A DNA stretch of 64,000 bases, taken from assembly GCA_017499595.2 (NCBI GenBank), contig CM039006.1, positions 1,798,001 to 1,862,000 of the forward strand, given 5' to 3'. Origin of the DNA: Psilocybe cubensis (Eukaryota). Of this stretch, positions 49,695 through 53,219 are shown in pieces; the first letter of the stretch is position 1; each line of letters opens with the position of its first letter. The notes beneath the pieces were generated by a model. The model was not told the DNA's origin, searched no databases, and saw nothing but the letters and a program-made list of their open reading frames with translations. Position numbers and translations under genes: made by a program.

Positions 49695-50279
49695 GGGGGG
49701 CAGGGAGAGGGTGGAAGAGAGGTAAGACTCGTTACCGGACAACGGACGCTGACCAAAATGAGCCTTTCAAAATATTTAGTCTCACGACTTTTTAACGCTC
49801 CAATTTAGCCCCAATAAGGAAGTTATGGATCATGTGACGCCACTATTTGCCGGAAACGCGGGCAGTCGTCCTGCTCAAACGTACTCCGAGCAGAAAATTG
49901 TCTCGAATATGTGAGTTGACTCCAACGCGATCCTCTACCAGACAATATCTGAAGCAGAAAACATAGGGCGCAAGTATCTAGTGGCATCTGCATATCTCGT
50001 TGATTCAGTCCATTCTGCGGCTCGAATTTTCTCGGCAGGTCCAGAATGACCAAGACAGTGTCGGCGCTTAAGTAAAAGCGCAGCCGATCTGTGTCCAGTC
50101 CATTTCTCAAAGTCTCGTTTTTGCAACGAATCGCCTCGACTGTAATGCAAATCACGCTCTTAAATCCGCAGTAAAACAAGCTATAACAAGTCAGGAGATT
50201 CAAAAGTTCATTTCTGAACATTTAGAATGTGTTTTGACTCCTCTACCCCTGATGGATACCCGCCATCTGGACTAGTTGA

Positions 50280-52846
50280 TTAAACACTGACCCGTCCCAA
50301 ATTCTTCAATACCAAATCCTTGCTCCACTTGCGCAAAATGTGCTTCTGAACCTTGCCACTTGCCGTCTTTGGGAGCTCTGCAGGGTTACCATCCTCTCCA
50401 ATGAACCACACCCAAGCTGGGGCATTCTGTTCATATATTGCATGTCAATATATTTTCTAAGAACCTTCCTTGTAAAATGAACACACCTGGGGATTCATGT
50501 TTGTTGAGACAACCTGGCGGACTTCTTCCTTGGAGATATGCGTGTTTGGCTCACGGACAATCCACGCGCCTACTACCTCGCCATATTTAGCATCGGGGAC
50601 CGCGACTGCAGCTGCTTCTCGTATATCTGGATGAGCTGTCATAGCGTTTTCTATCTGGACTGGGAATAAGTTCTACCAAAACGATATTCGTTAACCATCA
50701 CAATAAACCACAAAGCGTTAAAACGTACTTCGCCACCCCGGATGATGATGTCCTAATCACAAGGTCAACCAACGTGTAAAGCTAATCATTTGGATCTTGT
50801 GTCCTACCTTGATCCTTCCAACGACTGTTCTGGTACGATCAATACGTTATTCTCCAGCAGTAAATATCGAAACTTGCCTCTTAGATAGCCTTCCTCATCC
50901 ATGATACCCTCGTCTCCCGTATGCATCCAAAGAGTCCCGTCCTCATCCCTTTTCATGACGCTCCTAGTCTGCTCGTCGTCTTCCCAGTACCTACACAAAA
51001 GCGACTTAGTGCTTCCTCGTGTTTCGAGCACCAAACCGTCAACGCCTACCCTTTTTGCAACAAATATCCAGCAACACAAATCTCGCCTGGTTTCCCAACA
51101 TCAACGACGTTGCCTTGCGTGTCGATGATTTTCGCCTTGACGTGCGGTTGAACTTTTCCTACAGTTTCTACGCGCTTGATGATGGGATCAGCCGGCGTGG
51201 TCTGGAATGATACTGGACTCGTCTCCGCTGCCACACATTTGTTGGTTACCCAAAGACCCAGGAGCTATGTCAATGACTCACTCATTCCATACGCGTTTGT
51301 CAATTCAGTCAAATTAAGCTCGGATATAAGATGCTTCATAAGATCTATAGGTATAGGTGATCCAGCTGCAATTCCAGTTCTGCGGGCCATAGATGTCAGC
51401 ATGGACTGAAGACCACTCAAAAAAAAACAATAGTTGGCTTACCTCAAAGTCGACATGTCAGGAGTTCTGCCATCTTGCTGACGTTGCTTAACTTCCGCCA
51501 AAACTCCCAGGAAATGCGTAGGTACGCCATGCAATGCTGTACACCTTTCTTCTACGACGGCATCGACGATTGACGGTGCGTCGAATATTGCAGATGGATA
51601 TACGATGGATGAACCGTGCGCCCAAGCCGCTAGGTTCCCTAAAACAAGGCGTATCGGCACAATACAGGTAAGTCAAACTGTCAGCAAAGGAAAAGGAATG
51701 GACATATCAAAGCAATGGAATAATGGCGGTACGTTGCAAACAATATCTTTCTCAGTGAGTCGCATACACCGACCGATAGAAATTGCATTGTTTAGGAGAT
51801 TGGAATGTGTAAGCTGTGAAGAGGTAAGAAAAACACAGAGTATAAGAAGAGTCATACTCACAGATACAGCTTTAGGTAGGCCAGTCGTTCCGCTTAAGCT
51901 GGAATTTAGAAACAATTTATGTTGCATTCATATAAAACATACCTCGTGAATTGTAAGTTAATAACCTCATCTTTATCTAAACCAGCATAAATATCCTTTT
52001 GTAGTCGCGCTTCACGACTGTCTTCTCTCCATACTAAAATTTCCCGCCAGTCAACCGTACCCTTAATGTGCAATGGTGCCAAATCTGCCCGATGTTCATC
52101 CTTGTTATCAACGACGACGAGGTTGCGCAAATGGGGTAGATCTGGAATTTGAAGTTCTCCAGGTTGATGGTTACGAATTTCGAGGAATGCTTCAGACAGA
52201 GTGCGAACGTATGTGGATGTTCGTATTTGAGGAACGACAAATAGATGTTTAACGGAAGATAGGTTCAGTGTGGACACCTGCAACCGAGTAAGCGCTAGAC
52301 AAGATTCCGAGCGAGAACAGTCAACGTACAAGCTCAGTCAAACGATAGGCTGGGTTCATTGTAACCAAAATGGCCCCTATACTCGCACAAGCCCATTGAA
52401 GCATAGCATACGAACTGCAAAAAGTATATATATCTTATGACGCTTCGCATTTCAAAGTTTTGATTGCCATACCTATTATTCCCCATAATCACCCCGACAC
52501 GGTCTCCCTTCTGCACGCCCATGGCCAAAAGCCCCCTCGCGAGTGCGTTTATGTGTCGATCGAATTCCATAAAATCCCATGCGAGGTGTGTCCCCACACC
52601 CAGGTTATGCGACGCTGGTCCACCATGGGCACGAGGAAGTTCTTCCCTACAGATCAATGCAGGTCGATCGCCAAACTTGCTCAACACCTCGCTGTTGAAG
52701 TATTCCGGGAGTGTCTTGAATGAGAGCGGAGGGTCCAGTGGGCCTTGGACTGCAGACTTCGTCAAGGTTCTGTTGGGGAAGGCATTCCGTGCCGCCGGGA
52801 ATGATGATGAGGATACATGGCGCAGAATTGCGCGCGTCACCGCCAT
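50280..52846 (-). CDS. AMP-dependent acyl-CoA synthetase (ACSF2/YngI-like) with probable mitochondrial presequence; has GT-AG, GC-AG and AT-AC introns
   Basis: INLQFTSGTTGLPKAV, PLFHCFGLVLGNL (needs the AT-AC intron), LHGVPTHF, AYGMTETSPVS, WMHTGD, VVGRIKDIIIRGGENL, PKTASGKVQK. Arg/Ser-rich N-terminus. Confidence 0.93.
50825..50877 (-). other. GC-AG intron (53 nt) in the acyl-CoA synthetase gene
   Basis: AGA G|GCAAGT...AACAG|TC GTT GGA AGG ATC AAG restores YLRVVGRIK. Confidence 0.85.
51651..51707 (-). other. Non-canonical AT-AC intron (57 nt) in the acyl-CoA synthetase gene
   Basis: Minus strand TGC TTT G|ATATGTCC...CCGATAC|GC CTT GTT restores the conserved HCFGLV. Read-through hits an in-frame TGA. 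Confidence 0.82.
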
Positions 52847-53219
52847 AGACGCACTCTATGAAGGTAAAAAGCAACCACTCTAATAACCGGATGCCATAAA
52901 GCCATTTCCCTTGACGTTACCGCACAACGTTCACATGAGCCACTAGCGCTGATCATGTGGGACATTGAGCTATCAGTGCTTCATGTCCTGGCAAACCAAT
53001 CCATAGTAATTTGCAACTCCTGCATTCATCGGAATTTCTAGACGTGTTATCTTGCTGAAAACAAATTGAAGTCAAAGTAATGTCCAGGAACAAAGCAAAA
53101 GTGACTCCTATTAGTTGATGCATAGTAACGGCACAACGGTCGGCATAGAAATCTGAGATTAAAATATAAAATCTCCGACTTTACACATCAATTCGCGTTT
53201 ATCTCGCGCACATTCATCG

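Follow-up and report, generated by a model that had tools for sequence, protein, structure and literature searches.

How does a conserved fungal gene tolerate an intron that begins with AT and ends with AC? The question is raised by a stretch of 64,000 nucleotides (nt) of Psilocybe cubensis DNA (GenBank assembly GCA_017499595.2, contig CM039006.1, positions 1,798,001 to 1,862,000), hereafter the window, whose first letter is position 1 in all coordinates below. On its minus strand a predicted acyl-coenzyme A (CoA) ligase gene is interrupted, within the conserved motif PPLFHCF-G-LVLGNL, by 57 nt with these unusual ends (51651..51707). An earlier note on this DNA, made from the letters alone, proposed a rare AT-AC intron spliced by the major (U2-type) spliceosome. 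We consider it very probable that the 57 nt at 51707..51651 are a genuine AT-AC spliceosomal intron removed by the major spliceosome, and favour this account overall.

The insert is the fifth of the gene's 12 introns and lies in phase 1 in the Gly codon of the motif. With borders marked by slashes, the minus-strand letters read CCA TTA TTC CAT TGC TTT G / ATATGTCC...CCGATAC / GC CTT GTT TTA GGG; in the wider context GTA CCG precedes the first CCA, AAC CTA follows GGG, and the 57 nt run ATATGTCCATTCC...GTGCCGATAC. The upstream flank translates as ...CNVPPLFHCF (within LTHSNLLNNAISIGRCMRLTEKDIVCNVPPLFHCF) and the downstream flank as LVLGNLAAWAHGSS.... Since 57 is a multiple of three, both flanks fall in one frame, which a TGA within the insert closes, with open reading frames at 51673..51927 and 51439..51672. 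The coordinates, the length, the split motif and the in-frame TGA are exactly as the earlier note had described. The donor ATATGT (51702..51707), preceded by exonic TTTG, is a fungal GTATGT-type site with A at +1, and the acceptor TAC (51651..51653) is followed by exonic GC. Three branch-site candidates, CTGAC, TTGAC and CTTAC (51669..51684), place their A at 30, 22 and 18 nt from the 3' end, all on the minus strand; the same motifs are found near the 3' ends of GT-AG introns in this gene. Splicing at these borders is predicted to give ...TGCTTTG/GCCTTGTT....

Other ways of bridging the interruption were tried and rejected. The only GT...AG pair in reach, GTCCAT...TTTTAG, changes the frame, as had been claimed and as can be read directly from the window letters. 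The pair GTCCAT...GACAG reaches the TGA, and the use of the upstream GT (AAC/GTACCG) as donor would cost the protein its PPLFHCF motif. Read-through or recoding of the TGA is rejected because the insert is absent from transcript-like contigs and because the intron length in relatives is not a multiple of three in 37 of 74 sequences (73 environmental loci, described next, plus the window).

Metagenome contigs were scanned with two exon-6 peptides (VLGNLAAW and LHGVPTHF), a choice blind to the intron ends, and yielded 80 loci. An AT...AC intron interrupts the same Gly codon in 71 of them and an AT...AA intron in two (L001 and L053). In one locus (L010) the intron is cut by the contig end and ends in ...AC, in two the junction lies beyond the contig (L076 and L080), two are uninterrupted, transcript-derived frames (L071, 638 residues; L072, 647 residues), and two carry a displaced GT-AG intron (L077 and L079). 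A GT-AG intron at the same site was found in none of the 80 loci. The recurrence of AT-AC at one position in 71 of 80 loci is far beyond chance. The comparison of orthologues that the earlier note had called for finds the position kept as AT-AC; the intron is not an isolated oddity of one genome but is conserved in this gene across mushroom-forming fungi.

The 74 sequences are diverse: clustering at 90 % identity on the first 150 nt of exon 6 separates them into 39 clusters, and third codon positions have a median identity of 36 %. The interiors of the introns are unconserved and not alignable between clusters. Across all 74, position -1 together with +1, +2 and +5 is invariant, and +4, +6, -3, -2 and -1 are nearly so. 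The two AT-AA introns, ATGAGT...CCATAA and ATGAGT...TTCTAA, come from unrelated loci and suggest that an A-A terminal pair is tolerated too. Several lineages (L035, L037, L048, L062, L075 and L079) have an extra GT-AG intron after ...D.LC, which leaves an exon of only ~29 nt (GC AAT G.. CC. CC. CT. TT. CAC TG. TTT G) ahead of the AT-AC intron. As for the displaced introns, L077 (1393-1489) is a distant homologue whose exons are long and whose gene structure is ascomycete-like; its Gly codon is uninterrupted, and a GT-AG intron instead falls within the His codon of PLFH, 10 nt upstream. L079 (1446-1500) lacks the AT-AC intron and has a GT-AG intron of 55 nt shifted 5 nt downstream, where it separates the Leu and Val codons of GLVLGNL; this could be intron replacement or sliding.

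Removal of the intron is seen in relatives. In exon 6 the locus L072, which resembles complementary DNA (cDNA), agrees with the genomic locus L075 at 95 of 102 bases. L072 reads ...tctttcactgctttg/gtcttg... where L075 reads ...ctttg/ATAAGTCC...CTCTCTAC/gtcttg..., and thus joins the exons exactly where L075 has ATAAGT...CTCTAC. Intron and cDNA have different bases beside the borders, which makes the junction unambiguous. Transcript-like proteins in general (full-length frames on contigs of roughly 2 kb) read FHCFGLVLGNL and agree with exon 6 of AT-AC loci at up to 63 of 66 residues.

Donors and acceptors were tallied in 70 sequences, and U12 motifs were searched for in 60 distinct introns. The donor hexamers are ATAAGT (48), ATGAGT (16), ATATGT (3, the window among them) and ATAAGC (3), and the last three intron bases are TAC (36), CAC (32) or TAA (2). 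The last CTNAY motif stands 6-24 nt (median 17) from the 3' end of the relatives' AT-AC introns. All 70 donors are therefore of the major-spliceosome type, as the earlier note had read the donor of the window, and the search returned no sign of U12 signals: no donor of the 70 starts with ATATCC, the U12-type donor /ATATCCTT was not encountered, the CCTTRAC box occurs in none of the 60 distinct introns, and the best match to the U12 branch box, which in U12-type introns lies 10-15 nt from the 3' end, does not surpass that of a neighbouring GT-AG intron, so that the box is not enriched over this control. An Rfam scan of the 64-kb window gave no matches, a length of sequence that is uninformative on minor small nuclear RNAs (snRNAs).

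The neighbouring intron 4 offers a comparison. Among 63 loci with both flanks found, it is GT-AG in 48, GC-AG in eight and absent in seven. RAGT at +3..+6 is present in only 13 of the 56 introns, including all eight with GC donors, each of which reads GC[AG]AGT. The AT donor is held near consensus like these GC donors, which fits compensation for a weakened U1/U6 contact. In the literature, U2-type AT-AC introns are described as carrying a strong /ATAAGT donor (PMC5029451, PMC1557818), and three surveys report Dikarya (Ascomycota and Basidiomycota) without minor introns or minor snRNAs (PMC10639083, PMC2846911, PMC11347168), in agreement with what the earlier note had assumed of this group.

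In the mechanism that we propose, the major (U1/U2/U4/U5/U6) spliceosome would remove an intron that appears to depart from the ordinary short fungal type only at its two ends, with A at +1 and C at -1. The donor would retain all other U1 and U6 pairings, and would be accompanied by a putative CTNAY-type branch site 18-30 nt from the 3' end and by a YAC acceptor. When exons are ligated, the first base of the intron is normally paired with the last in a non-Watson-Crick G-G pair, for which A-C can substitute (PMC11585973, citing Parker and Siliciano 1993 and P-complex structures). If yeast genetics and spliceosome structures are extended to this intron, its A at +1 and C at -1 would compensate each other, and a single reversion to G at either end would be selected against. 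Because either single reversion would break the A-C pair, the AT-AC state would be frozen in long stasis. RAGT at +3..+6 would be kept closer to consensus than in neighbouring introns, as with GC-AG introns.

For P. cubensis itself, four public runs cover the stretch: X3 and X4 are genome-sized contig sets, and X1 and X2 behave as RNA. The intron is spanned by a contig of X3 (record 14, 50250-51910) and one of X4 (record 28, 51587-52900), which differ from the window elsewhere by 11 and seven letters, respectively. Neither set differs at 51651, 51652, 51706 or 51707, and the sole variant inside the intron is 51667 G>T (plus strand), common to X1 and X4. An assembly error concealing GT...AG termini, which the earlier note had named as a possible refutation, is accordingly rejected, as the DNA contigs of two other runs keep AT and AC. 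Seven sense introns of the gene are skipped in the RNA-like contigs of X1 and X2 (CT..AC on the plus strand). That P. cubensis uses the AT-AC borders in the same way we infer from sequence.

Several points weigh against the account of a genuine AT-AC intron removed by the major spliceosome. The joint 51650>51708 occurs in no contig of X1 or X2; no contig lies over exon 5 and X2 cover is absent from 51585-51940, gaps that are in themselves neutral. The only RNA-like contig over the intron (X1 record 3, 51592-51719) is unspliced there and may be retained sense pre-mRNA. This contig is probably antisense RNA, because it is attached to the joint 51519>51592, which is GT..AG on the plus strand. Two further plus-strand GT..AG joints, 51952>52005 and 52208>52263, are held by X1 record 4, in which sense intron 3 is unspliced. 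Spanning 51520..52262, the three plus-strand joints look like spliced antisense RNA across the middle of the gene, which is the simplest reading; Logan contigs are unstranded and can merge antisense RNA with sense fragments. Beyond P. cubensis, the pair L072 and L075 comes from close relatives and not from one genome, and the environmental loci carry no taxon labels and are placed by their nearest named proteins. Use of the major spliceosome, finally, is deduced from the intron sequence and the Dikarya literature. As a separate observation, antisense joints of this sort would show as 'CT-AC introns' in an unstranded annotation.

The gene around the intron was modelled from open frames and from joints in the RNA-like contigs. 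The model (50280..52846, minus strand) comprises 13 exons and 12 introns of 48-63 nt (ten GT-AG, one GC-AG and one AT-AC) and encodes a 633-residue acyl-CoA ligase, with no stop once the AT-AC intron is removed. The product is collinear with the 631-residue protein P0033 of Pholiota conissans, the sole gap being three residues near the N-terminus. Exon 5 (51708..51813, 106 nt) encodes LTHSNLLNNAISIGRCMRLTEKDIVCNVPPLFHCF followed by G, and corresponds to Pfam AMP-binding profile positions 182-218. Exon 6 (51443..51650) supplies GC and then LVLGNLAAWAHGSS...MSTLR, and its 3' border is the RNA joint 51379>51443. Further along, the GC-AG intron (intron 9, 50825..50877, donor GCAAGT) lies upstream of a 17-nt micro-exon (50808..50824), after which comes a GT-AG intron, all on the minus strand; a contig of the X2 RNA supports this arrangement with a skip 50754>50878 that leaves 15 letters between.

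The product has the SGTTGxPK and PLFHxxG motifs of the adenosine monophosphate (AMP)-forming acyl-CoA ligases of the ANL superfamily, and its best NCBIfam match, a fatty acid CoA ligase family, is below the cut-off. The best protein match is the public model P0003, 'Acyl-CoA ligase sidI [Psilocybe cubensis]', with 100 % identity outside the mis-modelled parts; the host gene is on this basis a predicted sidI-like acyl-CoA ligase, 'sidI' being the depositor's name. Exon 5 is skipped in P0003, which lacks 38 residues (LTHSNLL...PPLFHCFGLVLG), PPLFHCFG among them, and adds three residues (GKT) at the micro-exon. Pfam PF00501 (AMP-binding) and PF13193 (AMP-binding_C) are matched on both P0003 and P0033; the AMP-binding match falls into two stretches in P0003 and is a single stretch in P0033.

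Gene finders allow only GT/GC-AG introns, so the AT-AC intron goes unmodelled, and either the exon is skipped or the intron is read through. Read-through leaves recognizable signatures, namely FHCFD followed by K, E, N or M (G/AT-AAG, GAG, AAY and ATG) and R before LVLGN (C/GC). Of 159 fungal models with at least 450 residues, a count that leaves out seven bacterial-like matches and one protist match, 75 are broken at the junction, the P. cubensis model included, and 41 have read-through signatures; many broken models are without the PLFHCFG core motif. The expectation that automatic predictors would mis-model this gene is confirmed both by the 38 residues missing from P0003 and by this wider count. 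Signatures are found in models named Schizophyllum, Mycena, Flammula, Gymnopilus, Collybia, Infundibulicybe, Amanita, Lentinula, Armillaria, Pisolithus, Paxillus, Gyrodon, Leucogyrophana, Lactarius, Multifurca, Trametes, Coniferiporia, Sanghuangporus, Tulasnella and Botryobasidium, genera which we take to represent the Agaricales, Boletales, Russulales, Polyporales, Hymenochaetales and Cantharellales. Among the environmental loci, the nearest named proteins of the divergent AT-AC locus L078 are from Tulasnella (70 %). Those of L079, which is Phallomycetidae-like, are from Hysterangium, Clathrus and Sphaerobolus (84-88 %). Of the models readable at the site in the group of L079, those of Hysterangium, Sphaerobolus, Gautieria and Ramaria are intact (four full-length) and that of Clathrus is not. 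Judged by these comparisons, the AT-AC state at this codon dates at least to the common ancestor of Agaricomycetes, and one lineage, the L079 group, appears to have replaced it. We assume an age of roughly 300 million years for this ancestor, following published time trees.

An intron of this age could have an older history. It could descend from an early-fungal U12-type AT-AC intron that was taken over by the major spliceosome when the Dikarya ancestor lost the minor one, with only the terminal bases kept, an origin that we regard as unlikely. Besides an age as great as that of the Agaricomycetes, this origin would be in keeping with the minor introns and minor snRNAs of early-diverging fungi (PMC10639083, PMC11347168), with the conversion of a nematode U12 AT-AC intron to the U2 type by a small splice-site shift (PMC2846911), and with the displacement of GT-AG introns in two divergent loci, by -10 nt in L077 and by +5 nt in L079. 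If it were true, the displaced introns of the Phallomycetidae-like and ascomycete-like loci would be alternative escapes from the same ancestral intron, and the intron would be a datable relic of minor-spliceosome loss in fungi. However, U12 donor and branch motifs leave no trace in the introns examined, the step from GT-AG to AT-AC is reachable by two substitutions, and Ganoderma lingzhi has annotated introns of both the GT-AC and the AT-AG kind (Table 1, PMC11590231). A U12 intron at this codon in orthologues of early-diverging fungi, if there is one, would make the site a record of minor-intron conversion upon loss of the machinery in Dikarya.

The earlier note had also suggested that splicing here is rate-limiting and regulated, with retention leading to a premature stop and nonsense-mediated decay that would tune the level of the enzyme. 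A slow splice could be expected from the fact that rescue of A(+1) by C(-1) is less efficient than wild type (PMC1557818), and one RNA-like contig runs unspliced through the intron; however, that contig is attached to the antisense-type joint, and no joint or retention signal at this intron in the X1 and X2 contigs is assignable to the sense strand. The consequence claimed for retention holds in part: it shifts the frame or meets a stop in 64 of the 74 sequences, whereas in the other 10 the insert is in frame and open. The near-consensus donor, moreover, looks selected for efficient splicing and not for weakness. We find regulation of this kind improbable, and the suggestion of the earlier note gains no support from these data.

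That a U12-type spliceosome persists in these fungi and removes the intron is barely credible: AT-AC ends are typical of one subclass of U12 introns, but ATATCC donors (0 of 70) and CCTTRAC boxes (0 of 60 distinct introns) are missing, and the three surveys report Basidiomycota without minor snRNAs or minor introns (PMC10639083, PMC2846911, PMC11347168). Equally hard to credit is a pseudogene or wrong assembly in P. cubensis from which the insert is not removed, to which the lack of any sense junction read seen in this species and the exon skipped by the public model could point, but the rest of the gene is an intact 633-residue frame, RNA-like contigs show splicing of sense introns to either side of the insert, its termini are unchanged in two further DNA contig sets, and the same arrangement occurs in 71 other loci.

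Under the favoured account, in which the major spliceosome removes the AT-AC intron, the locus would provide a natural, obligatory and deeply conserved A1-C(-1) exon-ligation substrate in organisms reported to be without a minor spliceosome, on which the constraint that the terminal-base pair places on intron evolution could be tested. The state appears 'frozen': the site is never GT-AG in 73 loci, and the neighbouring intron switches between GT and GC and is sometimes lost. The intron is also an annotation trap, with nearly half of the retrieved fungal models (75 of 159) wrong at the junction; these models, and probably more, would be repaired if fungal gene finders accepted AT-AC introns whose donor is ATRAGT. 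In searching the literature for a description of this intron or of its conservation we found only general surveys; the supplements of PMC11590231, which list the 13 Ganoderma lingzhi genes with AT-AC introns and may already include the orthologue, lay outside the search, and no article joining human ACSF2 with minor introns was found. U2-type AT-AC introns are known to be conserved between distant animals and have been suggested for fungal xylanase genes (PMC1557818), and non-U12 AT-AC introns have been counted in a rust fungus (Table 2, PMC2846911). The intron described here is a new, unusually well-conserved case of the U2-type AT-AC class already known in animals.

The animal members of this class (SCN4A/SCN5A and TAF2; Sheth et al. 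2006, PMC1557818) share with it the AT-AC ends, a donor that otherwise follows the major consensus and the absence of U12 motifs, and their position and ends have likewise been kept over large evolutionary distances, between human and puffer fish or human and Drosophila (PMC1557818). Unlike them, the P. cubensis intron sits in a fungal host that lacks a minor spliceosome according to the literature, is short (~50-65 nt among its relatives) and is kept across a whole fungal class. Closer in taxonomy is Ganoderma lingzhi, of the same class, in which 13 AT-AC introns with the same ends are annotated and one has been verified by reverse transcription PCR and Sanger sequencing (PMC11590231). There, too, earlier gene models were broken because the introns were not recognized (PMC11590231), although the verified case lies in another gene, which encodes a DNA polymerase delta zinc-finger domain (PMC11590231).

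Yeast provides the mechanistic parallel. Its A1/C(-1) double mutants and the nested AT-AC intron of RPL30 (Parker and Siliciano 1993, cited in PMC5029451 and PMC11585973) likewise combine the major spliceosome, a U12-free organism and the replacement of G-G by A-C. These cases are artificial or minor events (about 1-2 %), and the RPL30 donor is unlike /ATAAGT, whereas the AT-AC intron described here would be the only way to make a conserved protein. GC-AG introns, such as intron 4 (GC[AG]AGT) and intron 9 (GCAAGT) of this gene, resemble it in that a deviant donor dinucleotide is offset by a near-perfect consensus elsewhere. They differ in that GT and GC interchange between species (48 GT and eight GC for intron 4), whereas the AT-AC site is never GT-AG.

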